NCBI GenBank assembly: GCA_964453785.1
Contig: CAYVRK010000007.1
Location: 57,511 to 121,510 of the forward strand
DNA length: 64,000 nt
Direction of reading: 5' to 3'
Source of the DNA: an uncultured Bacteroides sp.
GTDB lineage: Bacteria; Bacteroidota; Bacteroidia; Bacteroidales; GCA-2748055
Part shown: positions 1 through 54,756 of the stretch, in pieces
How the letters are laid out: each line of letters begins with the position of its first letter
Position numbering within the stretch: the first letter of the stretch is position 1
Notes under the pieces: generated by a model
What the model saw: only the letters and a program-made list of their open reading frames with translations
Told to the model about the DNA's origin: nothing
The model's database searches: none
Translations under genes and position numbers: made by a program

Positions 1-372
1 ATCGTTTCCCGGAAATTTGGCGAGAAAATTGGTGTCCAGATGGCCCCTACCTTCGTCTATTACAATGCGGTCCCTGAAGGATACCGCAATGATAACTACT
101 CCCTGAATTTTGGAGGACGTTTCCAGGTGTTTGGCTTTCATTCCATCATATTTGAATATGACCAGCCACTGGTTCAGCCCACTGGGGATAATGCCAAAAC
201 CATCTACCCCAACATGGCACTGGGCATAGAAATCGGAACCAGTACACACGCATTCAGGATATTCGCATCCAATTACAACGCCATCGTCAAGAACAGGAGC
301 GTCGCTTTCAACGACAGAGACCCATTTGAAGGAGATTTCCAGTTCGGATTTAACATCTCGATCAGGTTTTAA
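1..372 (+). CDS. outer-membrane beta-barrel protein, C-terminal part (5' end lies outside window)
   Basis: Frame 1 is open from base 1 (IVSRKFGEKIGVQ precedes the tracked Met at 40). Alternating beta-strand-like pattern (FRIFASNY, FQFGFNISIRF) and a terminal Phe typical of OM barrels. The stop lies 2 nt before the next ATG. Confidence 0.55.
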   Translation: MVSRKFGEKIGVQMAPTFVYYNAVPEGYRNDNYSLNFGGRFQVFGFHSIIFEYDQPLVQPTGDNAKTIYPNMALGIEIGTSTHAFRIFASNYNAIVKNRSVAFNDRDPFEGDFQFGFNISIRF

Positions 373-374
373 CC

Positions 375-1340
375 ATGAGAAACCCAACAATCGCATTATC
401 CGGAATACTGCTGACTTGTGCATTTTCGCTTTGCGCCCAGTCAGTTGATACCACAAAGATCAAACCCGCCTTCCGCGAGGTCAATGAGTATGTGGATGAC
501 AATGAAAACTGTCTCAGATGCCATGGTGAGTTGAAGTATATCATCGAAAACCAGGGCAGGGTCATGACCGAACTGATGTGTCCTGACAGGGTCATCAATA
601 GGGATGCTTACTATTCGGGGGTCCATAAGGCATTTTCATGTTTGGATTGCCATTCGTATGAATTTGAGGTTTTCCCTCATTCGGTGGAAGCCAGGGTAAC
701 TGAGATGCTCTTGTGCATGGATTGTCATGGATACGACGAGACCTTTTCAAAATACCATTTTGAAGACATCGAAATGGAGTTTGCTGAAAGTACCCACAAC
801 ATGCCTGAATTCACTTGCTGGAAATGTCATGATCCCCATTCCTATAAGGCGTTCATGAGAAATGCCGATGATATCGAAGAAGCCGTGCTTTATGACAACA
901 GCATGTGCCTGAGCTGCCATGCGGATTTCAGTCGCTTTATGTTGCTGACCGACAGGAAGGAGATCAATGTGGTAGAGAGCCATAGCTGGTTGCCTAACCA
1001 GGTGGCCCATTTCAGAGCCGTCCGTTGCATTGAGTGTCATACGGAGATCAACGATTCCATCCTGATCGCTCATAAAATCCTGCCAAAATCAGAAGCGGTT
1101 AGAAACTGTACGGAATGTCATGCCAAAGACTCCAGGCTCATGCATACCCTCTACAAATTCGAGAGCCTTGAAAAACGAAAGGTTGGTTTTGTGAACAGCA
1201 TCATGATCAATAACTCCTACGTCATTGGTGCAAACCAAAACGTGCACCTCAACCGCTTAAGTTTGATCGTCTTCGGAATGACCTTACTGGTCATTGGGTT
1301 TCATACCTATTTGAGAATTAAAAAACAGAAAAAAAGCTGA
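375..1340 (+). CDS. heptaheme c-type cytochrome, C-terminally membrane anchored
   Basis: 321 aa with a signal peptide (ILLTCAFSLCAQS). Seven CXXCH motifs: CLRCH, CLDCH, CMDCH, CWKCH, CLSCH, CIECH, CTECH. C-terminal hydrophobic helix LSLIVFGMTLLVIGFHTYL followed by KKQKK. Confidence 0.85.
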   Translation: MRNPTIALSGILLTCAFSLCAQSVDTTKIKPAFREVNEYVDDNENCLRCHGELKYIIENQGRVMTELMCPDRVINRDAYYSGVHKAFSCLDCHSYEFEVFPHSVEARVTEMLLCMDCHGYDETFSKYHFEDIEMEFAESTHNMPEFTCWKCHDPHSYKAFMRNADDIEEAVLYDNSMCLSCHADFSRFMLLTDRKEINVVESHSWLPNQVAHFRAVRCIECHTEINDSILIAHKILPKSEAVRNCTECHAKDSRLMHTLYKFESLEKRKVGFVNSIMINNSYVIGANQNVHLNRLSLIVFGMTLLVIGFHTYLRIKKQKKS

Positions 1341-1341
1341 C

Positions 1342-1965
1342 ATGGCAACTAAAAAAATATATCTCTACCCAATATGGATCCGTCTCTGGCATGTCATCAA
1401 TGCCATGACGTTCCTTTTACTGGTAGCAACCGGGATTTGCCTGCATTATGCCTCTGCTGACAATAGCCTGATCCCTTTTCAGATTTCGGTGGGGATTCAT
1501 AACATTTGTGCCATTGTCCTTTCGGTCAACTATGGTGTTTTTGTCATCGGCAATGTGGTTACAGGAAATGGAAGGTATTACCGGAAGTGGAGAAAAAACC
1601 TTTGGCCCAAACTCTGGAAACAATTCCTTTTCTATGCCGTTGGAATTTTCAAGGGTGAGCCCCATCCCTTCCCCATTACCAAGAAACAAAAGTTCAATCC
1701 ACTGCAGAAAATTTCCTATGTATTTGCCATGTATCTTGGAATGCCTTTGCTGATTATCTCAGGGATTGGGCTCATGTTCCCGGAGAGGATCTCCAATACC
1801 ATATTTAAAATCAGTGGCCTCCTCTTTTATGATGTGCTCCACATCATTGTAGGCTTTGTGCTTTCCCTCTTCCTTTTGATTCATCTCTATACCTGTACTT
1901 TGGGCGATAAACCGGGTACTTTGTTTAAGAGCATGATCAACGGATACCACGAGGAACATGAATAA
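1342..1965 (+). CDS. membrane cytochrome b (FdnI/PhsC/HydC-like diheme b subunit)
   Basis: 207 aa with 4-5 hydrophobic helices carrying conserved His (WHVINAMTF, GIHNICAIV, VLHIIVGF, LLIHLY). No CXXCH. The ATG lies 1 nt after the upstream stop, suggesting translational coupling. Confidence 0.75.
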   Translation: MATKKIYLYPIWIRLWHVINAMTFLLLVATGICLHYASADNSLIPFQISVGIHNICAIVLSVNYGVFVIGNVVTGNGRYYRKWRKNLWPKLWKQFLFYAVGIFKGEPHPFPITKKQKFNPLQKISYVFAMYLGMPLLIISGIGLMFPERISNTIFKISGLLFYDVLHIIVGFVLSLFLLIHLYTCTLGDKPGTLFKSMINGYHEEHE

Positions 1966-2095
1966 GTCCTTTTTTTCAAAGTGACTTATATTCAGACTAG
2001 TTATAAATAGATCCTACAATTGGAGATATGTTAATAGTTGCATATAAAAATCACTATTTTAACGTGCTCTTAACAACCAAGAACCTGATCACTGA

Positions 2096-4894
2096 ATGGG
2101 TCATAAAACCGATATTTCCTCTCGGGCAATAAAATTTCTGGGGCTATTGCTGCTGTCAGCATCCCTTCCACAGGTCTCCCTTTTCTCCCAATCCAATGAG
2201 GATTGCATGATGTGCCATGAGGATATTGAACTGGAAGGCATGTTGCGTGGAAGGAATGTATCCATGTTTGTGGATACCACGGTTTTTGAACGATCAGTCC
2301 ATCACGGCAACAGCTGCCTCTCCTGCCATGCGGATGCCGCAGATGAAGGCTTCCCCCACGCCGATGATCTGAAACCCGTCAACTGTGGCAATTGCCATAC
2401 CCAACAAATGGCAGATAACACCAAGGGTATTCACGGACAGGCACTCCTGTTGAATGATCCCAATGCGCCCAGCTGTAAAGAGTGCCATGGTCACCACGAT
2501 ATCCTGTATTATACCGATCCCAAATCCAGGACCTATAAAATGAACATTCCCATTTTATGCGGGACCTGTCATCGTGAAGGGGAAGTGGTTGCAAGGGCAT
2601 ACAACGTATCCGAACACAATATCGTTGAGAATTATACCCAGGGCATCCATGGAAGGGGCTTATTCGAAGCAGGGCTCATTGTAACAGCAACATGCAATGA
2701 TTGCCATGGCAACCACCTGGTGCTTCCGCATACAAGTCCTAATTCATCCATTTCACCCAACAGGATCGCTGGGACCTGCATGAAGTGCCATACCCGTATT
2801 GAAGAGGCTCACAAGAAGGTCATCAAAGGTGAATTATGGGAAAAGAATCCATCGGTCATCCCCTCCTGCTCACAGTGTCATCCTCCTCATAAAATTGATG
2901 TTCCCCAAATCCAGGCAAGGGTTTCGGATAACAAATGCATGAAGTGCCATAAGGAAGCAGATGTACATAAAATGGTTGACGGTGAACGTGTTTCTCTCCA
3001 GGTGGATGACAATATACTACCCAACTCGGTCCATAAAAATATACAATGCACCAAATGCCATACAGAGGTCACTGATCACCTCCCACGCCCCTGTTCCACC
3101 AACAAACCAGTGGACTGTTCTTCGTGTCACGCCGAAGTTTTTGATAATTATTTTAAAAGTGGCCACGGGCAGGCCCATTATAACAATGTGGAGAATGCCC
3201 CTTATTGTACCGACTGTCACGGTACCCATGCCACCAAATCCAGGTATGACGATACATCACCAGTATACCGGACAGCTATTCCATCGCTTTGTGGAGAGTG
3301 CCATAAGGAGGATGGTAAGGCACCCCGGTCCACTGAGTTGAAAGAGGTGGATGCCTTTGCCGATTATTCCATGAGTGTTCATGGTCAGGGACTCACAAGC
3401 AAGGGACTGACCGTTAGTGCAGTTTGTACAGACTGCCATACCACCCACCTCATGCTGAAGGAATCCAATCCCGAATCATCAGTACACCCTTCCAATGTCC
3501 AGCAAACCTGTGGAAATTGTCACAAAGGGATCCTTGAACAGTACCTGAAGAGTGACCATTCCTTTACCGAAGAGTTTCCAAAAAAGGAGTATCCAACCTG
3601 CGTGAGGTGCCACACTGCTCACGGGATCTCGACTGTGAGTCAGGACAAATTCATGAATGAGGTCACCACCCAGTGCGGATCCTGCCATGAAGAAACTGCA
3701 AAGACTTTTCTGAAAACCTATCATGGCAAAGCGTACCAGCTGGGTTACTACGAAACGGCCCGATGTTCTAATTGTCACGGTTCCCATAACATCTTAAAGG
3801 CTGAGAATCCCGAATCAATGATTGCAGAACAGAATCTTGTCACCACATGCGGAGCATGTCACCCGGGAGCGAACAAACGTTTTACAGGCTATTTAAGTCA
3901 CGCTACCTATAAGGACGATCCCAAATTGCATGTCGCTTATATCTTTATGACTGCCCTGTTGCTGGGTGTATTTTTCTTCTTCGGCATTCACCTGCTCATG
4001 TGGCTTCCGCGTTCAGTTTCAGAAAGGAGAAAGAAAAGAAAAGAGGAACCCAGGGAGATCGGGAACCAATACATCAAACGCTTCTCCCGCAATCAACGGA
4101 TCACCCACGTCTTTGTAATCATCAGTTTCATCCTGCTAGCACTGACCGGAATGATGCTTAAGTTTGCCAATATGGAATGGGCCAAATTTCTGGCAAGACT
4201 CATGGGTGGGGTGCAAAACGCCGGAGTTCTGCACCGTATGGGAGCTGTCATTACATTCGGTTACTTTTCCTTTCACATCCTCAACCTGGTGAGAATGAAG
4301 AGAAGGAAAAGGCTCTCCATGACCAAATTTATTTTCGGGAAGAATTCGCTCTGGTTTAATAAGCAGGATATTCTTGATTTCGTGGCCACCATCAAATGGT
4401 TTGTGGGCAAAGGACCAAGGCCCAATTATGGCAGATGGACCTACTGGGAGAAGTTCGACTACCTGGCTGTTTTCTGGGGGGTAGCCATCATTGGTTTCAG
4501 TGGCCTGATACTATGGTTTCCTGTACTCTTTACAAAGTTCTTTCCCGGCTGGGTGATCAATTTTTCACAGATCATCCACAGTGACGAGGCCCTGTTGGCC
4601 GTTGGTTTCATCTTTACAATTCACTTCTTTAACACCCATTTCCGGCCGGAAGCATTTCCGATGGATACAGTCATATTCACCGGCCATATGCCCCTGGAGC
4701 ATTTCAAACATGAAAGGCCGCGTGAATATCAGGAATTGAAAGATTCAGGAAAGCTGGAAGAAGCCATCGTGGAAAAACACTATTCAAAGGAGAACATGAG
4801 GTTGATCCGGCTCTTCGGATTCCTTGCCCTGGCCATTGGTGTGATCCTGATTGGGTTCATCGTCTTCACCTTCATTTCAGGAGGTGGACACTAG
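2096..4894 (+). CDS. 19-heme c-type cytochrome fused to a six-helix cytochrome-b-like membrane domain
   Basis: 932 aa with a signal peptide. Nineteen CXXCH motifs between residues ~37 and ~590 (CMMCH ... CGACH). Six hydrophobic helices follow, with His-rich helices ITHVFVIISF, VLHRMGAVITFGYFSFH and IIHSDEALLAVGFIFTIHFFNTHF. Confidence 0.85.
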   Translation: MGHKTDISSRAIKFLGLLLLSASLPQVSLFSQSNEDCMMCHEDIELEGMLRGRNVSMFVDTTVFERSVHHGNSCLSCHADAADEGFPHADDLKPVNCGNCHTQQMADNTKGIHGQALLLNDPNAPSCKECHGHHDILYYTDPKSRTYKMNIPILCGTCHREGEVVARAYNVSEHNIVENYTQGIHGRGLFEAGLIVTATCNDCHGNHLVLPHTSPNSSISPNRIAGTCMKCHTRIEEAHKKVIKGELWEKNPSVIPSCSQCHPPHKIDVPQIQARVSDNKCMKCHKEADVHKMVDGERVSLQVDDNILPNSVHKNIQCTKCHTEVTDHLPRPCSTNKPVDCSSCHAEVFDNYFKSGHGQAHYNNVENAPYCTDCHGTHATKSRYDDTSPVYRTAIPSLCGECHKEDGKAPRSTELKEVDAFADYSMSVHGQGLTSKGLTVSAVCTDCHTTHLMLKESNPESSVHPSNVQQTCGNCHKGILEQYLKSDHSFTEEFPKKEYPTCVRCHTAHGISTVSQDKFMNEVTTQCGSCHEETAKTFLKTYHGKAYQLGYYETARCSNCHGSHNILKAENPESMIAEQNLVTTCGACHPGANKRFTGYLSHATYKDDPKLHVAYIFMTALLLGVFFFFGIHLLMWLPRSVSERRKKRKEEPREIGNQYIKRFSRNQRITHVFVIISFILLALTGMMLKFANMEWAKFLARLMGGVQNAGVLHRMGAVITFGYFSFHILNLVRMKRRKRLSMTKFIFGKNSLWFNKQDILDFVATIKWFVGKGPRPNYGRWTYWEKFDYLAVFWGVAIIGFSGLILWFPVLFTKFFPGWVINFSQIIHSDEALLAVGFIFTIHFFNTHFRPEAFPMDTVIFTGHMPLEHFKHERPREYQELKDSGKLEEAIVEKHYSKENMRLIRLFGFLALAIGVILIGFIVFTFISGGGH

Positions 4895-4895
4895 T

Positions 4896-5585
4896 CTATT
4901 GGACCACAGTGGAATTCTCCAGCAGAACTTCGTAGCTGTAGCCGTATCCGAAATCCAGGTTCAAAGCCAGGATGCCTTCAAGGATTACCACTGTGCCCAC
5001 TTCCAATGACTCCATGGAAGTGGCTGTGAGGTCGAATTTGCCTTCAAATTCGGTCCCGTCCTGCAGATGTACCCAGTTTCGCTCCATAATGGCCGGATTA
5101 TACTTGGTGACCTCTCCTTTTACACGAACTGTTTTCCCTTCATAAGCCTCCGGATCAGCATAGATCTCTGCAATTGTAACCGTACCTTCAACCCTTTCCA
5201 CTGCGACCTTAACCTTCTCTTTGGGGGCCATGCTGCCAGGAGTCATCTCCTGTACAGGCATCACTTTGGAATCATCACCCATAAAAAGAGCCTCCACGAA
5301 AAGAACCTCATCAAATGTACGGTCGAGCTCTTTGCTGTAAAAATCCTTCATAAGCATCCCTCCCTGATAATGATAGGTCTCTCCAGGACTGGCCTGCATG
5401 GTGGGTACGGCAATCCAGAATTCAGTTTTCTTACTTTTGACCAGCAGGTAGGTATAATCGCTCACCTGCTCGACTGCCTGTACTTTAACGGTGTTATCAG
5501 TGTTTTCTGCTTTGTTCCCGCAGGAGGATGCAGTGAGTATCAATAAGAGGATGATCAGGTGGTTCAGTTTCGCTTTCATTTTCAT
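4896..5585 (-). CDS. lipoprotein of unknown function with OB-fold-like C-terminal domain
   Basis: 229 aa with a lipobox (LLILTASSC followed by GNK). The segment GKTVRVKGEVTKYNPAIMERNWVHLQDGT resembles periplasmic bacterial OB-fold proteins. The gene abuts the convergent 19-heme gene with a 1-nt gap. Confidence 0.6.
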   Translation of the reverse strand: MKMKAKLNHLIILLLILTASSCGNKAENTDNTVKVQAVEQVSDYTYLLVKSKKTEFWIAVPTMQASPGETYHYQGGMLMKDFYSKELDRTFDEVLFVEALFMGDDSKVMPVQEMTPGSMAPKEKVKVAVERVEGTVTIAEIYADPEAYEGKTVRVKGEVTKYNPAIMERNWVHLQDGTEFEGKFDLTATSMESLEVGTVVILEGILALNLDFGYGYSYEVLLENSTVVQ

Positions 5586-5663
5586 TCAATTTTATAAGTA
5601 CCTTTTTCAAATATATTTTGCGCGAAGATACAACAAACGGGAGAATAGATTGACAATTCTTTT

Positions 5664-7163
5664 CTAATACAGGGCTCTGTGACAATCCGAACAAGCCATC
5701 TCCTTCCACGCCTCCCCAATGTCTACCGGGTGCCTGAAATCCAGAGCGTTATCAATGGTTGTGGATTCATAATTGTCTGGCCCGCCCTGAGCAAGGATTG
5801 TATGGCACAGATTACAATCCCTTGAAATGATGCGTCCATCTTCACTTTGATGATTCCCGTTATGGCATCTGAAGCACCCGTTGAACTCCATGTGGCCAAT
5901 ATGAATCGGATAGGCGTTCCAGTTCACTTTCATTTCAGGAAAGATGTTTTTTGAATATCCTTCAAGCAACCCGTCAATTGTCATTTGGATCAGGTCCTGG
6001 TTTTTTTCATCAATTTCCGGATAAGCAGACTTGTAAAACGCTTCAACGCTCTCCCTGATCTGGACCTTGCCCGAATCCCGGTCCGTAAACTCCTGGTTGA
6101 ACACCTGCATGGCAAGAAATTTCACCTCGGGAAGTTCAGCGGGAATGCTTCCTGCAGCGATCAGGTCGTCGGTAAACTTCTGAGGTGCCTGGTAATTGTG
6201 TGAGGGCCGGTTGTGGCAATCCAGACAGTCCATCTCCCTGATTTCTAAAGTATCAAAAGCTTCGGGACCAACAGTTTCATAGATATCCTGGTAAATTACA
6301 GTGTCCCCGGTAGCCTTATCAATATAGCGTACCCAGGGTATATATTCTCTCTTTTCAGAAGAAGCCAGGTAATCTATTTTAACATCGCTGTGTATATGCC
6401 AATGAATTCCTTCCTGCAAACCCAGGGCACTGCTCTTGGATCCGATTTTCATTTTAAGCTGGATATCCCACTCCGTATTTGCTGAATCGGCCAGATAATT
6501 TCTTTCGTTTCTTAACCGGTAGGAGTAAAATTTCTCCGGCCAGTGGCACTCTTCACAGGTCTCACGTGCTGGTCTCAGGTTATGGATGGGCGTTTTTATG
6601 GGTGTAGGATATTTATGAAAGAGAACAGAATATACCTGGTACATTCCCGACAATTTGCTTTTTACGTACCAGCTTGCTCCGGTCCCCACATGGCATTCCA
6701 CACATGCGACCCGGGAGTGTGCCGACTCCTGATAGGCCACATACTCGGGTTCCATGACCTGGTGACACAGGGTTCCGCAGAACTCGTTTGATTCCGTATA
6801 ATGAAAGGCCTGGTAACTGCCTATTCCGGTTAACATGAGAAAGACAATGGTGACGAAGATAAAGACCGCCACAGCATTCCATTGCCTCGAGTCCCTCAGG
6901 TCAATGACCATCCATCTCCTGGTACCCTCTTCACCTTCGCGCCTGATTCTCTTAGCCCTCCTGGACATACCAACCGGGATCAGAATGAGGCCTATAATCA
7001 AAAATACCGGAAGCACAATATAAGTGATGATTCCCGTATACGAACCCCCCTCATGAAACAACCAATTGGTAAGCATCAAAAAAATAACACTCAGGATGCT
7101 CACGGCTGCAATGATGCTGCCGAGCATTGAAAGCGGATTGTAAAAAGTCTTCGGGAATTTCAT
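5664..7163 (-). CDS. membrane-anchored NapC/NirT-type multiheme cytochrome (ImcH-like)
   Basis: 499 aa with two N-terminal TM helices (LGSIIAAVSILSVIFLMLTNWLF, IITYIVLPVFLIIGLILIPVG) and a third (AVAVFIFVTIVFLMLTGIG). One CX3CH (FCGTLCH) plus six CXXCH: CVECH, CEECH, CLDCH, CFRCH, CNLCH, CSDCH. Confidence 0.8.
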   Translation of the reverse strand: MKFPKTFYNPLSMLGSIIAAVSILSVIFLMLTNWLFHEGGSYTGIITYIVLPVFLIIGLILIPVGMSRRAKRIRREGEEGTRRWMVIDLRDSRQWNAVAVFIFVTIVFLMLTGIGSYQAFHYTESNEFCGTLCHQVMEPEYVAYQESAHSRVACVECHVGTGASWYVKSKLSGMYQVYSVLFHKYPTPIKTPIHNLRPARETCEECHWPEKFYSYRLRNERNYLADSANTEWDIQLKMKIGSKSSALGLQEGIHWHIHSDVKIDYLASSEKREYIPWVRYIDKATGDTVIYQDIYETVGPEAFDTLEIREMDCLDCHNRPSHNYQAPQKFTDDLIAAGSIPAELPEVKFLAMQVFNQEFTDRDSGKVQIRESVEAFYKSAYPEIDEKNQDLIQMTIDGLLEGYSKNIFPEMKVNWNAYPIHIGHMEFNGCFRCHNGNHQSEDGRIISRDCNLCHTILAQGGPDNYESTTIDNALDFRHPVDIGEAWKEMACSDCHRALY

Positions 7164-7363: not shown

Positions 7364-7894
7364 CTAGTTCGCAGCAGGATTAGGATGGGCAATCTTTGCT
7401 GAAAACTCGGCATAATTAAATGCCTTATAGGTTGGGCTCCCTGAATTATGGCAGCTCTTGCATACCTCTTCTGTAGGCAGAATCATTCCTTTTTGCAAAG
7501 CCAATTCCTGGTTTTTCATGATTGAGGCTCCCTTATACATACTTCCCGGACCATGACACGACTCACATGAAACGCCTTCAGACATCACAATTCCGGCCAC
7601 CAGGCTTTTGTCAATATGACCAACTGTGGAGTGGCATTTAACACAGGCCGCATCGGTGGTCGGATCAGCAATTCCCTTTGCAGTGGCAATTTTCTTTGCT
7701 TCATCCGTGGCTAGGGTCTTCATGGCATTGGCATGGGGTCCCTTGAGCCAGACATTATACTGATCACCTGTAGCCGGCTTCATATGGCACATTTTACACT
7801 TTGCTGAACCGATGTATTTGAAATCCTGGGCTTGCAGAAACGTGCCAGCAAAAAAGGCCAGAACAACGAGGAATAATAATTTCTTTGATAACAT
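7364..7894 (-). CDS. periplasmic tetraheme cytochrome c (cytochrome c554-like small multiheme)
   Basis: 176 aa with a signal peptide ending FLQAQ. Four CXXCH: CKMCH, CVKCH, CESCH, CKSCH. The N-terminal pattern YIGSAKCKMCH..W..GPHANA is typical of the c554-type family. Confidence 0.85.
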   Translation of the reverse strand: MLSKKLLFLVVLAFFAGTFLQAQDFKYIGSAKCKMCHMKPATGDQYNVWLKGPHANAMKTLATDEAKKIATAKGIADPTTDAACVKCHSTVGHIDKSLVAGIVMSEGVSCESCHGPGSMYKGASIMKNQELALQKGMILPTEEVCKSCHNSGSPTYKAFNYAEFSAKIAHPNPAAN

Positions 7895-8024
7895 AGCGAT
7901 AAGATTTTAGTTAACTATAAAGTTCTTTGATAAAAATATTTATTTCTTAAGAGAATAACTTCAAACTTCGGGCCATATATTGAAAATAGGCCACTATTCA
8001 GAATCATCCTAAATTCCGAACACT

Positions 8025-8063
8025 AAAAAAAACCAGGCCGCCCCATACCCATGAGACGGCCTG
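8025..8063 (-). terminator. rho-independent terminator after rhodanese gene
   Basis: Stem CAGGCCG (8034-8040) / CGGCCTG (8057-8063). The A8 run at 8025-8032 on plus gives a U-run on the minus strand. About 25 nt past the stop. Confidence 0.7.
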
Positions 8064-8087
8064 ATTAATGAGGGTTCTAAGGAATCT

Positions 8088-9059
8088 TTAGTCAACTACA
8101 TAATCGTAACCCATGATGGAACTTGCACTCCATTTGTGGCTGGACAGATCGCTGTAGATCATTCCATTGGCTCCGAAAAGCAATGTTTTTGCATCGTAGC
8201 CGATTACACGAAGGTAGGCAGCCATGTTGGCACTGGTCTGCCCGGTCCAGCAATAAACAACCACAGCCTTATCGGTGGGAAGGGTTTTCAGATCACCATC
8301 AAGGCTCATGCCCACTTTGGGGGTATATTGCATGGCTCCCGGAATATGCCCGATTTCTGTGTAATCTGCTTCGGCCCAGTAATTGGCAATGTAGTAGCTT
8401 TCCAGGGCTCCGAATACCGTGGCATTGGTAATCTTTGCAGGATCGAATCCTTCTGCAAAAACTTCTTCAATCCGCGCATCCAAAATCTCTTTTCCGGTTT
8501 TAAATCCCGTATTCAATACGGGGAGTTCTCCTTCCGGACCCTTCTCAGTAGCGTCTTTTGTAAATTCTGAGGTATACATACTTTTGGTATTGTTGTTCCA
8601 GCTACCGGCAAAGTCAGTATTCCATGAACACATTCCGAATCCCATGGAATAGGCATTGTCATACCCGGCTAGTCTCAAAAGGCAGGTTGCCCAGGCTGCT
8701 GTCTGGCCGGAATAACATACAATAATGATCTCATCTTTGCTGTCATCGTCAGTTGTGCCTTCAAGATGAGTAAGCACATCTTTGGAAGAAACATTCACAG
8801 CATTCTCGATATGTCCAAGTGCATAATCAGCAGCTGAACGGATATCAATGATGTAGTTGGCTCCCGTGGTATTCAGTGTTTTTACATGCTCTGCGCTTAC
8901 AATGGCAGGCATGGCTGTGGCAGCATAGTTGCCTCCATCGGCTGACTCAAGATACTCCACAAGGACCTGCGCTTCGTTGACATCTTCTTCTTTATTACAA
9001 GATACAGCGAACAAAGCAAGGAACAGGATGGCTACCATCCAGATTTTTGTCATTTTCAT
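8088..9059 (-). CDS. tandem-rhodanese (sulfurtransferase) lipoprotein
   Basis: 323 aa with lipobox LFAVSC followed by NKEEDV. Two rhodanese-like domains, each with a candidate active-site Cys loop (VCYSGQTAAW and YCWTGQTSAN). Confidence 0.8.
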   Translation of the reverse strand: MKMTKIWMVAILFLALFAVSCNKEEDVNEAQVLVEYLESADGGNYAATAMPAIVSAEHVKTLNTTGANYIIDIRSAADYALGHIENAVNVSSKDVLTHLEGTTDDDSKDEIIIVCYSGQTAAWATCLLRLAGYDNAYSMGFGMCSWNTDFAGSWNNNTKSMYTSEFTKDATEKGPEGELPVLNTGFKTGKEILDARIEEVFAEGFDPAKITNATVFGALESYYIANYWAEADYTEIGHIPGAMQYTPKVGMSLDGDLKTLPTDKAVVVYCWTGQTSANMAAYLRVIGYDAKTLLFGANGMIYSDLSSHKWSASSIMGYDYVVD

Positions 9060-9110: not shown

Positions 9111-10478
9111 TTATTTAGTCCATGAAGACGGCAACTTTCCATCTACGGTCATAAATTCGGAAGAAGACAATTCCCAGTCCTCCAGCAAATCAGACTTGAA
9201 AAGGAAAAGATTTCTATTGACCATTGAATCGCCTTCCATGCGGATGTGGCAGTTGAAAGAACATCCTTGTCCTGGTTCAACATGGGTCCGTGAGGTCCAC
9301 TTCAGAATATTATGTGGTGAAGTGTAGTTGTAGATTGGTAATGCATCGAAGTCCGCATATTCATCAACGCCGTACATCTCCCAGTTATCTGGAGCTCCAA
9401 GTGTCCGCCTGACCACTGTAAAATCAGAATTAAATCCATTTTTAACTTCAGGAATGGGATTGATGGCGATTTTAAAATCCATATAAGAAGGGACCCGTGC
9501 ACCCTCGCCGTGCACATGACAGCTTCCACAGTTGTTGTAATCCTGTGAATGGCAAACATAACAGCTGAAATCTCCGTAGTGCATTGAATGGTAGTTATTT
9601 GCAGTTTCGACACCATCATGACAATCCTCACATTCGGGTAGTTCACTGTAGGCGTACCGCTGCTCCACAGGCTGACCGTCTCCGTGAAGTTCATGACCAT
9701 CATGACAACTGAGGCATTCAAATTTCAGTTTTTTCTGATGCACATCGGGCTCGGTACCGGGAGCAACACCCAGGAAGGCATGTCCTCCCCTGGATACATG
9801 ACAGGTCACACATACATTGAGCATATGCGGGGTCTTGTTGAAATTATGCCCCTTGGACAACCCGCCCCCACCGGAAGCCGGGCGAACCACATGGCAATTC
9901 CCGCAGGTACCATGGCAATGTGCACAGTTGTCGTTATAACCCTCAATCTGATGCGCTGGCAGCTGGTCAAAATCCTGGGAACCATTCAGGCCGCTTCTGA
10001 TGGCCACTTTCCTTTTCTGGCCTGTACCATTATGGATGCTTGTGGTAAAATTATCCGCAATGTCCTTGTGGCAGGTTCCACACTTTTCTTCATAATAGAG
10101 TGATGGGTGCTTGATGAAATCGCCTGTATGGGCCAGCTCTTTTTCCCCGGTATTACCTACTCCGTTGTGGCATCCTGTACATCCGACGGAATAGTGCCCT
10201 GAGCTTTTAAAGGATTCATATCCTTCTCCCCCCATATATACCCTGTCATAGGGCTCATAATGGGGAGCCTCTCCGCCACATCCGCCAACAGGAGCATCTG
10301 TATCTGGCGTGTAGACTGCAATCAGCCTTTCGTAATCCGTATGGCATCCTTCGCAGGAATTTGCCTTGACTTCTCCGTTGCCTTTTCCCGGAATGGTATA
10401 ATTGGTACATGCGATGCCGGTAAAAACAAACACCACAAATAACAATAGCAGACCAGATCCAAACTTAATTCCTTTCAT
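9111..10478 (-). CDS. decaheme c-type cytochrome lipoprotein
   Basis: 455 aa with lipobox FTGIAC. Ten CXXCH: CEGCH, CTGCH, CGTCH, CAHCH, CGNCH, CVTCH, CLSCH, CEDCH, CYVCH, CGSCH. One additional CX3CH (CSFNCH) near the C-terminus. Confidence 0.85.
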   Translation of the reverse strand: MKGIKFGSGLLLLFVVFVFTGIACTNYTIPGKGNGEVKANSCEGCHTDYERLIAVYTPDTDAPVGGCGGEAPHYEPYDRVYMGGEGYESFKSSGHYSVGCTGCHNGVGNTGEKELAHTGDFIKHPSLYYEEKCGTCHKDIADNFTTSIHNGTGQKRKVAIRSGLNGSQDFDQLPAHQIEGYNDNCAHCHGTCGNCHVVRPASGGGGLSKGHNFNKTPHMLNVCVTCHVSRGGHAFLGVAPGTEPDVHQKKLKFECLSCHDGHELHGDGQPVEQRYAYSELPECEDCHDGVETANNYHSMHYGDFSCYVCHSQDYNNCGSCHVHGEGARVPSYMDFKIAINPIPEVKNGFNSDFTVVRRTLGAPDNWEMYGVDEYADFDALPIYNYTSPHNILKWTSRTHVEPGQGCSFNCHIRMEGDSMVNRNLFLFKSDLLEDWELSSSEFMTVDGKLPSSWTK

Positions 10479-10655: not shown

Positions 10656-10671
10656 ACTGATACAGATCAGT
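10656..10671. promoter_or_regulatory. perfect 6-4-6 palindrome ACTGAT-ACAG-ATCAGT, Fnr/Crp-box-like
   Basis: Read directly from the sequence. The core TGAT-N4-ATCA matches the FNR consensus TTGAT-N4-ATCAA in 8 of 10 positions. Lies in the divergent region between the decaheme gene and the Crp/Fnr gene, about 41 nt upstream of the crp ATG. Confidence 0.5.
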
Positions 10672-10711: not shown

Positions 10712-11416
10712 ATGACTAACATGGACAATTTGGAAAGATTTTCAGGTTGCACCCTAAGCTTTCACCAGTGTAGATGCTTTGAAACACTGACGGTGGAACA
10801 GAAGGAATTTCTGGATGCCCACTCTGTAAGGATCAAATACCGCAAAGGTGAAATGATTTGCAAGCAGGGTGGCTTTGTTTCACATGTCATGTATATGGAA
10901 CAGGGCCTTGCAAAAGTCTTTTTGGAAAACGGATCCAATTCCCTGGTTTTGAGGGTTATTCCGGACGGAAACTTCCTCGGTCTTGCTTCTATTTCCGAAG
11001 AGCATTCCACTTTCCCTTATTCAGCCATGGCTTACGTGGATTCGGATATAAGGCAGATCGACATCCATGCTTTCCGTAAATTGATGGAACTGAATAACCA
11101 ATTTGTAAAGGAGATTATCAATATCCTCAGCGCAAACAGTCTCCAGATTTACGGCAGGTTCTTCTGTCTCACTTACAAACAGGCTTTCGGCAGACTGGCA
11201 GATATCCTGCTATGCCTTGCCGACAGAATATTCAAGAATACGGAATTTGACCTGCCCCTTTCCCGAAAAGAGCTGGCAGAACTTTCCGGTATGAGTTCGG
11301 AGACTGTGATCCGGATGCTGAAAGAATTTAAAGAGGAAGGCCTGATCAGGATGGATGGAAAAGCAATCCAGGTGATGGATTATGAAAGGCTGAAACAGAT
11401 CAGTGATACCGGGTAA
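10712..11416 (+). CDS. Crp/Fnr family transcriptional regulator
   Basis: 234 aa with a cNMP-binding-like beta-roll (YRKGEMICKQGG...) and a C-terminal HTH (SRKELAELSGMSSETVIRMLKEFKEEGLI). N-terminal Cys cluster C13-X6-C20-X-C22. Confidence 0.85.
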   Translation: MTNMDNLERFSGCTLSFHQCRCFETLTVEQKEFLDAHSVRIKYRKGEMICKQGGFVSHVMYMEQGLAKVFLENGSNSLVLRVIPDGNFLGLASISEEHSTFPYSAMAYVDSDIRQIDIHAFRKLMELNNQFVKEIINILSANSLQIYGRFFCLTYKQAFGRLADILLCLADRIFKNTEFDLPLSRKELAELSGMSSETVIRMLKEFKEEGLIRMDGKAIQVMDYERLKQISDTG

Positions 11417-11484: not shown

Positions 11485-12609
11485 CTACTTTTCCGATAAG
11501 GCTTCAATTGTATTTTCAAGAACAGCTGCTATATAGGCCGGATTGTGAAATCCATGACTCCTGTCTTCCTTGATTGCACTATAGTTAACATGAGCCGCTG
11601 TCAGTGATGTACTGAATACACCAGGCTTCATCAGGTACGCATCGCCACCAGCATCAGAAGGATACATAATTCCTGCATCCACCAGAAGGGTATATAACTG
11701 ATCCAACAGTCCATCGGTTTCTGCCATGACTTCCTCAACTTTATCATCAAGGTTTTCGGCGATACCACCATCCGAATGGCACTCCAGGCAGGATGCAGGC
11801 CAGTTATAGGTCTCACTCCCATGGAATTCCCAGGTCATGGCCATGGAGTGTCCTGTGAGGTCACCAAATCCATCATTCATATGACAGGTAACACATCCAT
11901 TCTCAACTTTTCCCAGAACATGATGACTGGTTGGATAGGCAGTACTTCCCGTGAACTCAAAAAGATCCATTCCCGTAAGTAAATTATACTGTGGACCATG
12001 ATGAACACCAGTGCGGTTCATTGCTGCAGTGATGGTAACTGTCGTTGTGCCAGCGTCAAAATTTGCCCACAATGAATCTACCACAAGGGAAGAAGCTACC
12101 ATTTGGTGACATGAAGCGCACTGATTTCCGGTACCTATATCCACACCCATAGAGCCAGTCGCCGGCTCTGGCATACCTGCATTGGTCAGCCCCCAATCTG
12201 CCTCGGTATAAGTGTCATGAATGTTATGGCATGTGTAACAATTTGGTTGTGTAACATTCGCATAAGGTGTATTACTGGCACCAACCAGATTATCAAGAAA
12301 ACCCTGGCTGGTATGACATCCGGCACAATTGTAAAGTGGCCCAAAGGTCCTGTTTGTATACCCGGAGACATCTCCCGTTGAATGCCCTGAGTTTGCATAT
12401 TGCCTGGACTTTGTGACAATCACTTGATCATCACTATGACATACAGTACAGGTTGCATTGGCATCTATACCATCAATACCATCCGTACCATTTTCACCAT
12501 CGAGGCCAGGAGGCCCTGCCGGACCTTCGCAACTGCTCAGGATAAATGCGCCTGCAAGGAGGATCGCAAAACCACTAAGCAGACTGATCATAGAAATATT
12601 CTTTTTCAT
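11485..12609 (-). CDS. hexaheme c-type cytochrome lipoprotein with N-terminal collagen-like (GXY)7 segment
   Basis: 374 aa with lipobox ILSSC. This is followed directly by E-GPA-GPP-GLD-GEN-GTD-GID-GID. Six CXXCH: CTVCH, CAGCH, CYTCH, CASCH, CVTCH, CLECH. The C-terminal helix contains SHGFHNPAY. Confidence 0.85.
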   Translation of the reverse strand: MKKNISMISLLSGFAILLAGAFILSSCEGPAGPPGLDGENGTDGIDGIDANATCTVCHSDDQVIVTKSRQYANSGHSTGDVSGYTNRTFGPLYNCAGCHTSQGFLDNLVGASNTPYANVTQPNCYTCHNIHDTYTEADWGLTNAGMPEPATGSMGVDIGTGNQCASCHQMVASSLVVDSLWANFDAGTTTVTITAAMNRTGVHHGPQYNLLTGMDLFEFTGSTAYPTSHHVLGKVENGCVTCHMNDGFGDLTGHSMAMTWEFHGSETYNWPASCLECHSDGGIAENLDDKVEEVMAETDGLLDQLYTLLVDAGIMYPSDAGGDAYLMKPGVFSTSLTAAHVNYSAIKEDRSHGFHNPAYIAAVLENTIEALSEK

Positions 12610-12940: not shown

Positions 12941-14662
12941 ATGAAGCGAATGAAAAAGAATATGAGATATGTTATCATTTTCGGGGTAGTACTCATCTGT
13001 ATTACGTCATGCCGGAAATCCGATACGGTTGTGCGGTTGGCGGTTACCACCGACGTGCACGGGATGATCTTTCCATACGATTTTACAGACCGACATCAGT
13101 CTGATCACTCCCTCTCCCATATATACAATTATGTTACACTGAATCAAAACAGGGAGGACACCCTCTTTTTTCTGCTGGATAACGGCGATTTTCTTCAGGG
13201 GCAACCCACTGTTTATTATTACAACTTCATCGATACGGAGTCGGTGCACTTAGCGGCCCGTGTCATGAATTTCATGGCTTATTCGGCAGGCACAGTGGGC
13301 AACCACGACATTGAAGCAGGGCCGGAAGTATATAACAGGGTCAGGGAAGAGCTGGATTTCCCATGGCTGGCTGCCAACGCCGTGAACCCAGAATCCGGAC
13401 ATCCATACTTTAAGACCTACACCATTCTGAAAGCAAATGGGAGACGCATTGCCGTGTTTGGACTAACTACCCCCGGAATTCCACATTGGCTGCCCAAAAA
13501 CCTGTGGCCGGAGATGGAGTTTCATGACATGGTGGAAACTGCCCGGAAATGGGTGCCGATCCTATTAAAAAAAGAGAAACCCGATCTGCTGGTCGGACTG
13601 TTCCATTCCGGAACGGATGCCAGCTATGGGGGCAATCCGGAACCATATCTCAACGAGAATGCTGTACTGCATGTGGCCGAGGAGGTTCCTGGATTTGATG
13701 TGATTTTTGCGGGGCATGATCACAGGGTTTCCATCCAGTGGATCGTAAATCACAAGGGTGACAGTGTGCTTGTGGTGGACCCGGGAAGCCATGCCAGGTA
13801 TGCCGGCGAGGTAACCATCACATTCGGGCCCAAAGGAACCAGGCATATTTCAGCACAGAATGTGCCTATGGCGGAATATGGACCCTCGCCCGGGTTTGAA
13901 AAGGCATTTGCAATGGAGCGAGAAGCGCTTACCCGGTACCTGGGGGATACCATCACATGGCTTTCTGAAACAATGGATGGAGTTGATGCACTTTTCGGCC
14001 CGTCGGCCATGATGTCACTGATACACCAGGTTCAGCTTGAACTATCAGGAGCCGACCTCTCATTCACCGCACCACTTACCCTGACCGCGAAACTGGATAA
14101 AGGGCCGCTTCTTGTATCGGATATGTTTAAACTCTACCGTTTTGAGAACATGCTGTATACCATGGAGCTATCCGGAAAAGAGGTGGACGGGTTTCTTGAG
14201 CATGCAGCCGGCCTCTGGTTCAACACCATGAGCTCTCCAGGGGATCACCTTTTGCAGTTTAAAAGTGATACACCCGGACGGTTGAATCATCCCTATTATA
14301 ACTTCTCTTCTGCAGCCGGAATCGACTATTGGGTGGATGTGACCAAGCCTCCCGGGGAACGGGTGAATATCATTGGATTCTCCAACGGAAACAGTTTCAA
14401 TCCGGAAGAGAAATACCTTGTGGCTATCAATTCCTACAGGGGGAATGGCGGAGGGGGCCATCTGACCAGCGGTGCCGGAATTCCTGCAGGGGATCTCGCC
14501 GCCCGGATTCGATGGTCCACCGACGTCGATCTCCGCTATTACCTGATGCAATATCTTGCCAACCAGGATACCCTGGATCTGCCGTCATTGAACAACTGGA
14601 AATGCGTCCCTGCTAAATGGGTCTCAGGGGCCTCCGCAGCGGACCGTAAATACTTCCACTGA
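12941..14662 (+). CDS. bifunctional metallophosphatase/5'-nucleotidase (UshA-like) lipoprotein
   Basis: Calcineurin-like motifs TTDVHG, DNGDFLQG and GNHD, plus a C-terminal 5'-nucleotidase domain. Lipoprotein signal VLICITSC. The start is moved from the tracked 12893 to the ATG at 12941; 12950 or 12962 are also possible. Confidence 0.85.
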   Translation: MKRMKKNMRYVIIFGVVLICITSCRKSDTVVRLAVTTDVHGMIFPYDFTDRHQSDHSLSHIYNYVTLNQNREDTLFFLLDNGDFLQGQPTVYYYNFIDTESVHLAARVMNFMAYSAGTVGNHDIEAGPEVYNRVREELDFPWLAANAVNPESGHPYFKTYTILKANGRRIAVFGLTTPGIPHWLPKNLWPEMEFHDMVETARKWVPILLKKEKPDLLVGLFHSGTDASYGGNPEPYLNENAVLHVAEEVPGFDVIFAGHDHRVSIQWIVNHKGDSVLVVDPGSHARYAGEVTITFGPKGTRHISAQNVPMAEYGPSPGFEKAFAMEREALTRYLGDTITWLSETMDGVDALFGPSAMMSLIHQVQLELSGADLSFTAPLTLTAKLDKGPLLVSDMFKLYRFENMLYTMELSGKEVDGFLEHAAGLWFNTMSSPGDHLLQFKSDTPGRLNHPYYNFSSAAGIDYWVDVTKPPGERVNIIGFSNGNSFNPEEKYLVAINSYRGNGGGGHLTSGAGIPAGDLAARIRWSTDVDLRYYLMQYLANQDTLDLPSLNNWKCVPAKWVSGASAADRKYFH

Positions 14663-54754: not shown

Positions 54755-54756
54755 TG

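Follow-up and report, generated by a model that had tools for sequence, protein, structure and literature searches.

A two-cysteine rhodanese lipoprotein and its neighbouring multihaem cytochrome suggest an undescribed sulfur-handling enzyme pair common in anaerobic Bacteroidota

We analysed a 64,000-nucleotide stretch of DNA from an uncultured Bacteroides sp. (GenBank assembly GCA_964453785.1, contig CAYVRK010000007.1, positions 57,511 to 121,510 of the forward strand), hereafter the window, and in it a gene for a lipoprotein with two rhodanese domains. An earlier reading of the DNA letters alone (the sequence-only reading) had proposed that this protein is a surface or outer-membrane-associated carrier of persulfide or selenopersulfide that feeds a chalcogen substrate to the cytochrome encoded next to it. 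Our comparison of related loci suggests that the rhodanese and this cytochrome act together as a pair of enzymes for sulfur compounds, one that is not yet described and that is widespread among anaerobic Bacteroidota. The genes and features at the centre of the locus are the following, with positions counted within the window.

8024-8066, minus strand: hairpin (8031-8066) resembling an intrinsic terminator, with a T run; 16-bp stem with 8 G-C pairs, 22 nt past the rhodanese stop codon
8088-9059, minus strand: tandem-rhodanese lipoprotein gene, 323 amino acids, ATG start (Pfam, AlphaFold2 (AF2) and Foldseek)
8160-8492, minus strand: rhodanese domain 2 (about residues 190-300), loop C270-WTGQT, Cys codon at 8250-8252
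8610-8903, minus strand: rhodanese domain 1 (about residues 53-150), loop C115-YSGQT, Cys codon at 8715-8717
8979-8996, minus strand: acidic stretch N-K-E-E-D-V at +2 to +7 after the lipidated Cys, resembling a lipoprotein export signal (LES) and fitting C-X-K-(D/E)2-X
8997-9059, minus strand: signal peptide and lipobox (MKMTKIWMVAILFLALFAVS-C21), from the translation and a comparison of homologues
9111-10478, minus strand: partner lipoprotein cytochrome c, 455 amino acids, 10 CXXCH motifs plus one CX3CH; 51-bp gap to the rhodanese start
9246-9263, minus strand: CX3CH motif CSFNCH of the partner cytochrome, its eleventh haem motif
10278-10280, minus strand: codon of Cys67, in GGCGG of the partner cytochrome; aligns with an in-frame TGA of fusion genes described below
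10658-10669, unstranded: TGAT-N4-ATCA palindrome (FNR/CRP-type box), TGATCTGTATCA, between the regulator and cytochrome genes
10712-11416, plus strand: divergent Crp/Fnr-family regulator, 234 amino acids (Pfam cNMP_binding and HTH_Crp_2)

The lipoprotein does have two rhodanese domains, each with a Cys loop, as the sequence-only reading had it. Pfam matches the Rhodanese family (PF00581) twice in the 323-residue protein (E=3.2e-26; bit score 92, cut-off 22), and the loops occupy residues 115-120 (CYSGQT) and 270-275 (CWTGQT). In an alignment with E. coli GlpE, Cys115 falls on the catalytic Cys65. Aligned with each other, the two domains are paralogous (37% identity over 76 residues) and their Cys loops fall in register. 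C115, G118, Q119, C270, G273 and Q274 are invariant across 57 rhodanese homologues (alignment A1), as is S276 in domain 2. Both loops (CYSGQT followed by A, CWTGQT followed by S) have the six-residue length of sulfurtransferases and no Arg at +6, and for this reason they are not of the Cdc25/ArsC (CX5R) phosphatase type. Both domains carry a Cys at the catalytic position within sulfurtransferase-type loops, and sulfurtransferase activity is predicted; the alignments returned none of the inactive-type loops that would speak against a persulfide carrier.

The AF2 model of the rhodanese (predicted local distance difference test, pLDDT, 92.4) has 82 Foldseek matches in the PDB at E<=1e-3, and the best 50 of these 82 are all rhodanese-domain proteins. 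Over the whole chain, the TM-scores are only ~0.3, with a root-mean-square deviation of 15-20 Å, and the packing of the two domains in the model differs from that in bovine TST, RhdA and SseA. In four longer homologues (P0046, P0093, P0103 and P0109; 409-496 residues), the lipid anchor is separated from rhodanese domain 1 by PKD or Ig-like domains.

How constant is the neighbourhood of this gene? A scan restricted to one genome per species gave 352 relatives, from which 80 loci were retrieved, 78 of them with room upstream for the cytochrome. The carriers are mostly metagenome-assembled genomes (MAGs) of Bacteroidales, Marinilabiliales and other Bacteroidota, many of them from anoxic or sulfidic sources to judge by record titles. 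A homologue of the partner cytochrome lies directly upstream of the rhodanese on the same strand, ~1.4 kb before its start, in all 78 loci. Relatives lacking a neighbouring cytochrome, a finding that would have counted against a carrier dedicated to it, were therefore not seen among these loci. The divergent Crp/Fnr gene is present in 68 related loci. The conserved unit consists of three genes only, namely this regulator, the 455-residue cytochrome and the rhodanese, and no porin or beta-barrel gene is among the conserved module genes of the related loci. One locus (L004) has the bare three-gene module within otherwise unrelated surroundings. The remaining genes of the window's cytochrome island, those for the c554-like, NrfH-like, 932-residue, 321-residue, cytochrome b and 229-residue proteins, are found in only 3-20 of the 78 loci. 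The sequence-only reading had described the rhodanese as embedded among cytochromes; this is true of one subclade and fails in general, where the 11-haem cytochrome is the only universal neighbour. We also rejected the possibility that the whole cytochrome island is a single conserved system, its other cytochrome genes being present in only 14-20 of 78 loci.

The terminator-like hairpin directly after the rhodanese gene indicates that cytochrome and rhodanese form a two-gene unit, in agreement with the conserved core. Upstream, the FNR-type box also recurs, with exactly one TGAY-N4-RTCA in 61 of 66 distinct orthologous intergenic regions. Such boxes are not enriched in the window (7 found, 7.1 expected per 64 kb). 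Because this is chance density, we dropped enrichment as evidence, and the support for the box is its conservation across loci. A sigma-70 promoter scan was set aside as uninformative for Bacteroidota. Four cysteines of the regulator (Cys13, Cys20, Cys22 and Cys50) are conserved at 83-94%, which suggests an FNR-like redox sensor, and this regulator probably controls the pair through the conserved TGAT-N4-ATCA box. Taken together, the conserved box and the Cys-rich regulator suggest anaerobic induction.

The partner cytochrome is itself a predicted lipoprotein (lipobox …FTGIA-C24). The sequence-only reading had called it a decahaem, a count that needs correcting: it has 10 CXXCH motifs and one CX3CH (CSFNCH), and all 11 are 100% conserved in 120 cytochrome homologues. 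Since the last motif is a normal CXXCH in relatives, we regard the cytochrome as an 11-haem protein, and the window copy probably binds 11 haems. It fits no described family that we compared. Pfam gives only a generic cytochrome c7-type match and NCBIfam none at E<=0.01; the best PDB matches are 8rv0 (E=1.4e-3 over ~75 residues) and, marginally, 1sp3 (E=0.019), representing the ONR/OTR group. No CXXCK motif is present in its sequence. With PDB scores this marginal and no CXXCK, membership in the octahaem OTR, ONR or NrfA-type families was ruled out.

A loop 20 residues past haem motif 1 (PVGG-C-GGEAP) holds Cys67, which is 91% conserved in the 120 Bacteroidota homologues and is a Cys in every readable cytochrome adjacent to a rhodanese. 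One locus (L091, 7001-11082) has two tandem cytochrome paralogues, the upstream copy with Tyr at this position and the rhodanese-adjacent copy with GGCGG; a DDE transposase gene lies near them (4517-5704).

The two proteins also occur as one. A profile search of 1.8 billion cluster representatives returned 619 related clusters, and two long clusters among them, P0277 and P0306, combine the cytochrome with a C-terminal tandem rhodanese in a single chain. A search with P0306 added more than 80 further fusion clusters (90% identity) of 635-720 residues from Desulfobulbaceae, Thermodesulfobacteriota and Geobacteraceae. Aligned over 373 residues, the cytochrome of the window and that of P0306 share 31% identity (E=3e-41). 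These fusions are like the window pair in their homologous cytochrome, in the same 11 haem sites, in a probable selenocysteine (G-U-G-G) at the position of Cys67, as described next, and in a tandem rhodanese; they differ in being one chain with a Sec signal peptide rather than two lipoproteins, and in having CXXCH rather than CX3CH at the last haem. Because they are single polypeptides, cytochrome and rhodanese work in one compartment in the fusion lineages. Many stand-alone cytochromes (P0136, P0157, P0161 and others) carry the JGI name 'thiosulfate/3-mercaptopyruvate sulfurtransferase' and have no rhodanese domain; the misnaming probably arose by annotation transfer from the fusions.

About half (~45) of the fusion open reading frames (ORFs) are called from 'MAPLEPxEKVLV' and have no signal peptide and no first haem motif, which leaves 10 motifs. 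In all four loci examined, an upstream ORF of 61-67 residues encodes a signal peptide and the first haem motif and ends at an in-frame TGA (…SGAG-TGA-GG(S/A/K)V.PLEP…). The split genes, all from Desulfobacterota and each containing the in-frame TGA, are these.

L085, 7788-9959: split fusion gene
L088, 161-2278: split fusion gene
L089, 5791-7905: split fusion gene
L090, 5806-7959: split fusion gene

Reading through the TGA yields proteins of 704-723 residues with 11 CXXCH, and the TGA aligns exactly with Cys67 of the window cytochrome (G-x-G-[TGA]-G-G against GGCGG). A hairpin of 8 bp with a GUU loop starts 12 nt past the TGA; it is conserved across the four loci, with two compensatory pairs, as expected of an element resembling a bacterial selenocysteine insertion sequence (SECIS). 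These four fusions are probably selenoproteins, and about half of the listed fused proteins are wrongly annotated as two ORFs, divided at the TGA. Alternation of selenocysteine and Cys is a classical signature of a redox-active catalytic residue. The selenocysteine of the fusions and Cys67 of the window cytochrome are a probable catalytic pair, a site that marks the cytochrome as probably an enzyme rather than a wire. A predicted selenoprotein, WP_010941598.1 ('rhodanese-like form 1, UxxS'), could not be confirmed as identical with the fusion family.

Does the pair belong to a known system? In Geobacter, ExtKL (MccSep) is a multihaem selenoenzyme, a polysulfide reductase that is essential for elemental sulfur (S0) respiration and that also oxidises methyl viologen with selenite (PMC13510729). 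The rhodanese lipoprotein ExtH is encoded with it in the ext cluster, GSU2940-2936 (PMC13510729, PMC6148476). ExtH and ExtKL resemble the window pair in combining a rhodanese lipoprotein with a multihaem enzyme cytochrome that has a reactive selenocysteine or Cys, in sulfur or selenium chemistry, and in a respiratory context. However, ExtKL has 5 haems and the window cytochrome 11, and the selenocysteine of MccSep lies in …PDGUPTPNR, whereas the window family has its selenocysteine or Cys in GG[C/U]GG, 20 residues past haem motif 1. ExtH is ~49 kDa against ~35 kDa for the window rhodanese, which keeps a Cys in both domains. The ExtH likeness raised by the sequence-only reading does not extend to the family level. 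We made this comparison through the NCBIfam model NF040901 (equivalog cut-off 200 bits) rather than a Geobacter sequence. NF040901 was not among the 15 families matched by window proteins at E<=0.01 in NCBIfam, nor did the ExtKL model match any window protein; the fusion proteins reach just 26-50 bits on NF040901, and the core has no ExtI-like porin, ExtJ or pentahaem ExtKL. ExtH family membership was rejected on these grounds. Membership of the cytochrome in MccSep/ExtKL was rejected on its 11 haem motifs, its lack of an NCBIfam match and its different selenocysteine/Cys context, so that MccSep is an analogue only.

The sequence-only reading had also brought in Sud, which serves PsrABC in Wolinella succinogenes. 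Sud, like the window rhodanese in our working model, is a rhodanese fold outside the cytoplasm that hands Cys-bound sulfane sulfur to a respiratory reductase, but it is a soluble single-domain homodimer with a molybdoenzyme partner, unlike the tandem-domain lipoprotein of the window. The Sud structure 1qxn matched domain 1 only (E=1.9e-4, rank 14) when a family profile was used, and was absent at E<=1 when the single rhodanese sequence was the query. The likeness thus stands for the rhodanese domain and falls for the family, since the protein is a tandem lipoprotein and the score marginal. Classical TST/MST membership (bovine TST, RhdA, SseA) was rejected as well, because both domains keep their Cys, no SseA-type NCBIfam model matches, and the TM-score is ~0.3. 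The best sequence and structure matches are a tandem rhodanese of Francisella tularensis with a Cys in both domains (6MXV, E=5.8e-20, profile) and E. coli GlpE (E=1.1e-10), which differ from the window protein in being soluble, in having no known cytochrome partner and, at a whole-chain TM-score of ~0.3, in how the domains are arranged relative to its model.

Two further rhodaneses are said to serve sulfur metabolism. PhsE of Desulfitobacterium hafniense is reportedly a tandem rhodanese with two active sites in anaerobic thiosulfate or sulfur reduction (attributed to Prat et al., 2012). Fermenters that reduce thiosulfate reportedly have another rhodanese, RdlA, tied to anaerobic thiosulfate or sulfur reduction (attributed to Ravot et al., 2005). 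Judged by titles only, the partners of both are molybdoenzymes or unknown, not a multihaem cytochrome. Rhodanese carriers for respiratory sulfur enzymes are thus already known; for the pair of an 11-haem Cys/selenocysteine cytochrome and a two-Cys rhodanese lipoprotein we found no characterised member. No description of this pair or of its fusion was found in the literature searched, the nearest being a remark on Dethiobacter alkaliphilus. This organism uses neither Mo nor Dsr enzymes to reduce sulfur and thiosulfate, and a multihaem protein 'misidentified as thiosulfate sulfurtransferase' is encoded beside its rhodanese genes (PMC10376724); homology of that protein to the window family is not confirmed.

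What might the pair do? We lean towards the view that the rhodanese is the persulfide-handling subunit of a two-protein, haem-driven redox enzyme whose other subunit is the 11-haem cytochrome. Adjacency in 78 of 78 loci, more than 80 fusion clusters and the selenocysteine/Cys site all speak for a functional link between the two, which upholds the connection drawn by the sequence-only reading; the same three observations favour a chalcogen, sulfur or selenium, over iron as the substrate, again as that reading had it. The invariant Cys loops of the rhodanese, the terminator, box and regulator of the unit, the set of sulfur-reductase-like genes next to the rhodanese in 6-7 loci (described below) and the precedents in Geobacter and Dethiobacter also speak for our reading. 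In the scheme we propose, C115 and/or C270 of the rhodanese would accept zero-valent sulfur, with polysulfide, S0 or thiosulfate as the donor, and carry it in the form of a Cys-persulfide. This persulfide would be offered to the reactive Cys67 of the cytochrome (selenocysteine in Desulfobacterota homologues), where the S-S bond would be attacked; electrons from the haem chain would reduce the resulting adduct, and sulfide would be released. The reverse, oxidative direction is possible too, and selenium analogues could be handled alike. In the subclade of the window, the NrfH-like protein (5664-7163), as a quinol dehydrogenase, might supply electrons by way of the c554-like tetrahaem protein (7364-7894). 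We infer rather than observe what the substrate is, in which direction the reaction runs, that the persulfide passes to Cys67 and where the proteins are located. A bolder version, which we put forward only tentatively, is that the pair constitutes an unrecognised Mo-independent class of respiratory sulfur enzyme, in which a Cys/selenocysteine 11-haem cytochrome is fed protein persulfide by a dedicated rhodanese, encoded as its own lipoprotein in Bacteroidota and joined to the cytochrome in Desulfobacterota.

Several observations weigh against a persulfide-fed enzyme pair. First, some cytochrome homologues have no Cys67: several Bacteroidota have Tyr and others Arg or Asp at the site, so Cys67 is ruled out as a universal catalytic residue, and the continuous fusions of ~712 residues have Tyr there. 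Second, the rhodanese part of the fusions belongs to the classical kind, in which the N domain is inactive and the C domain active; it is remote from the window rhodanese (E=3e-5), and the fusion proteins match the SseA-type NCBIfam model at 1e-27 to 1e-38. Third, a non-fused cytochrome relative outside Bacteroidota has no rhodanese neighbour in at least one case (L087). Fourth, the cytochrome has 10 invariant extra His and 4 nearly invariant ones, which suffices for all 11 haems to be bis-His, and no open haem site is evident in this pattern of conservation. The AF2 model of the cytochrome is poor (pLDDT 58.9, predicted TM-score (pTM) 0.49, from a 50-sequence alignment), and placing Cys67 relative to a haem is impossible in it. 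As for the substrate, loop classes are known for TST/MST proteins, basic loops such as CRKGVT being the thiosulfate type; CYSGQT and CWTGQT lack these basic residues, and thiosulfate is therefore not an obvious substrate. Finally, only 14 of 113 homologues of the partner cytochrome have an acidic pair after the lipidated Cys, so that the predicted topologies of the rhodanese (strong LES) and the cytochrome (mostly none) disagree.

Where, then, do the two proteins reside? After its lipobox (…LFAVS-C21), the mature rhodanese begins NKEEDVNE. The LES of Bacteroidota was defined in Capnocytophaga, with the optimum C-X-K-(D/E)2-X (PMC5080379), and C-N-K-E-E-D is an exact fit, which bears out the surface-export-like signal of the sequence-only reading. 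The lipobox is kept in 115 of 120 rhodanese homologues, and its Cys is invariant in alignment A1; 102 of these 115 have two consecutive acidic residues at +2 to +6, and 63 have the strict LES motif. Only one of the ~9 predicted lipoproteins of the window, the rhodanese, has an LES-type motif, which is thus not a general trait of this genome's lipoproteins, and the predicted match exceeds chance. The window cytochrome starts C-TNYTIPGK, with no acidic pair; the same holds in its subclade, and cytochrome homologues in general usually have no LES or a partial one. Moreover, the fused Desulfobacterota homologues have ordinary Sec signal peptides. Surface exposure of the rhodanese is thus a reasonable prediction but doubtful, given that most of the cytochromes have no LES and that the fused relatives seem to be periplasmic. 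Of the sequence-only reading, the match to the LES optimum is upheld and the surface location is weakened. Both proteins may be surface-exposed by a route that the LES motif does not predict, the acidic stretch may serve some other role, or rhodanese and cytochrome may be split across the outer membrane as proposed for the ext system.

The last of these options amounts to a model of its own, in which an LES-flipped rhodanese captures extracellular S0, polysulfide or selenium and is linked through some outer-membrane passage to a periplasmic cytochrome. The exact and widely kept LES, unique among the window's lipoproteins, fits such a split, as do the usual lack of an LES in the cytochrome and the PKD domains of some rhodanese homologues, which are typical of surface proteins. 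In the ext cluster, too, the rhodanese lipoprotein is predicted to be extracellular and the multihaem enzyme encoded with it is periplasmic (PMC6148476). We nevertheless consider this model unlikely. The conserved module has no porin or beta-barrel gene, the membrane would be impassable for a protein-bound persulfide, and in Desulfobacterota cytochrome and rhodanese share one Sec-signal polypeptide and hence one compartment. LES function, moreover, is known from Capnocytophaga, another lineage (PMC5080379).

The rhodanese could instead be a maturation or repair factor that places a persulfide on Cys67 or on a haem-ligating Cys, takes one off, or holds that residue in reduced form, the substrate of the cytochrome being unrelated. 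One-to-one gene linkage and fusions would fit a dedicated accessory role equally well, and some haem enzymes that act in sulfur metabolism, SoxAX for one, have Cys ligands modified by a persulfide. (For a discussion of SoxAX and TsdA, see PMC13510729.) We judge this role improbable. A permanent, stoichiometric fusion and two active-type loops would be unusual for a maturation factor, and fusions that have Tyr in place of Cys67 nevertheless retain the active rhodanese Cys, which argues that the role of the rhodanese is independent of the residue at that site.

More improbable again is a stress response, either reduction of selenite or tellurite or detoxification of cyanide or reactive sulfane sulfur. 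Rhodaneses do detoxify cyanide. The ext cluster was first tied to selenite and tellurite reduction (PMC5877670), and the oxidation of methyl viologen with selenite by MccSep (PMC13510729) points the same way. But 11 haems, together with quinol-dehydrogenase-type and tetrahaem partners in the subclade, suggest electron transport at high flux, the FNR-type box and the Cys-rich regulator speak for control of an anaerobic respiratory kind, and the carriers come largely from anoxic or sulfidic sources by their record titles. Least credible of all is that the cytochrome is an extracellular electron transfer reductase for iron or electrodes with the rhodanese as a housekeeping bystander: the window has many multihaem genes, and some neighbours show weak MtrC/MtrF-domain and DmsE-type matches, but universal adjacency, fusion and a selenocysteine/Cys site are unexpected of a bystander, and the other cytochromes are absent from most loci bearing the pair.

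Why would such a pair matter? Reduction of S0, polysulfide and thiosulfate is usually credited to molybdoenzymes (Psr, Phs, Sre). Since 2026, S0 and polysulfide reduction has also been credited to the Geobacter multihaem selenoenzyme MccSep (PMC13510729). The module described here is present in at least ~350 species-level genomes, mostly MAGs of Bacteroidales and Marinilabiliales. If it does encode a haem-driven sulfane-sulfur reductase or oxidase, a large group of abundant 'fermenters' has been overlooked in sulfur cycling, and it could explain how organisms such as Dethiobacter, which have neither Mo nor Dsr enzymes for the purpose, reduce sulfur and thiosulfate. On the bolder version above, hundreds of supposedly fermentative Bacteroidota species would directly turn over S0, polysulfide or thiosulfate, and the pair would be, beside MccSep, a second independent invention of haem plus selenium/sulfur chemistry that cleaves S-S bonds. 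Handles for experiments are Cys67, with its selenocysteine counterpart in relatives, as well as Cys115 and Cys270, the LES, and the FNR-type box.

Around the conserved module, the window contains further genes of the subclade, including a second, divergent cytochrome cluster at 1-4894 (plus strand) that is found in only 14-20 of the 78 loci.

40-372, plus strand: partial DUF5777 gene of the second cytochrome cluster
375-1340, plus strand: multihaem protein of the second cluster, 321 amino acids, C-terminal membrane helix
1342-1965, plus strand: PhsC-like cytochrome b (NCBIfam thiosulfate reductase cytochrome b, 9e-56, just under the cut-off)
2096-4894, plus strand: multihaem-cytochrome b fusion of the second cluster, 932 amino acids
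4896-5585, minus strand: lipoprotein, 229 amino acids, no family above threshold in Pfam or NCBIfam; 14 loci
5664-7163, minus strand: membrane-anchored NapC/NirT/NrfH-like multihaem protein, 499 amino acids (Pfam Cytochrom_NNT, E=5.2e-11); 3 loci
7364-7894, minus strand: c554-like tetrahaem cytochrome, 176 amino acids, Sec signal peptide (Pfam Cytochrome_C554, E=7.5e-17); 16 of 78 loci

The 499-residue NrfH-like protein also matches the NCBIfam NrfH model at E=1.7e-14, below the cut-off, and is a candidate quinol dehydrogenase. Directly downstream of the rhodanese in 6-7 loci are genes for a membrane-anchored rhodanese, two YeeE/YedE-type proteins, NrfD-like and 4Fe-4S subunits and a PhsA-like molybdoenzyme (E=2.9e-136, below the equivalog cut-off). 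This set, which looks like a Psr/Phs-type sulfur reductase, lies on the opposite strand with its 215-residue rhodanese in L038, L039, L043, L050, L062, L063 and L070 (at ~9.3-15.4 kb; in L043 at 0.3-5.3 kb).

Some minor observations concern the surroundings. A 374-residue multihaem lipoprotein (11485-12609, minus strand) has a collagen-like G-X-Y run straight after its lipidated Cys (CEGPAGPPGLDGENGTDGIDGID…), and its counterpart in L023 (4487-5578) has the run CEGPEGPQGPAGVAGTNGTNGTNGTDGED…; the gene is found in 13-14 related loci, and a collagen-like stalk on a cytochrome would be unusual if real. A lipoprotein of the UshA/5'-nucleotidase family (12941-14662, plus strand), kept in 11 related loci, adjoins the cluster and weakly matches SoxB thiosulfohydrolase (7e-18) and a 'UshA-like (seleno)protein' model (2.5e-17), both far under the cut-offs; the c554-like protein (7364-7894) matches the C-terminal part of the UshA-like selenoprotein model (2e-17). 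Elsewhere, the window encodes a [FeFe]-hydrogenase large subunit beside a NuoF-like flavoprotein (52970-56520, minus strand; HydAB-type), proteins sorted by the type IX secretion system (T9SS), an arginine deiminase and a type III glutamine synthetase, and by these genes the host appears to be an anaerobe of the Bacteroidota that lives by fermentation.

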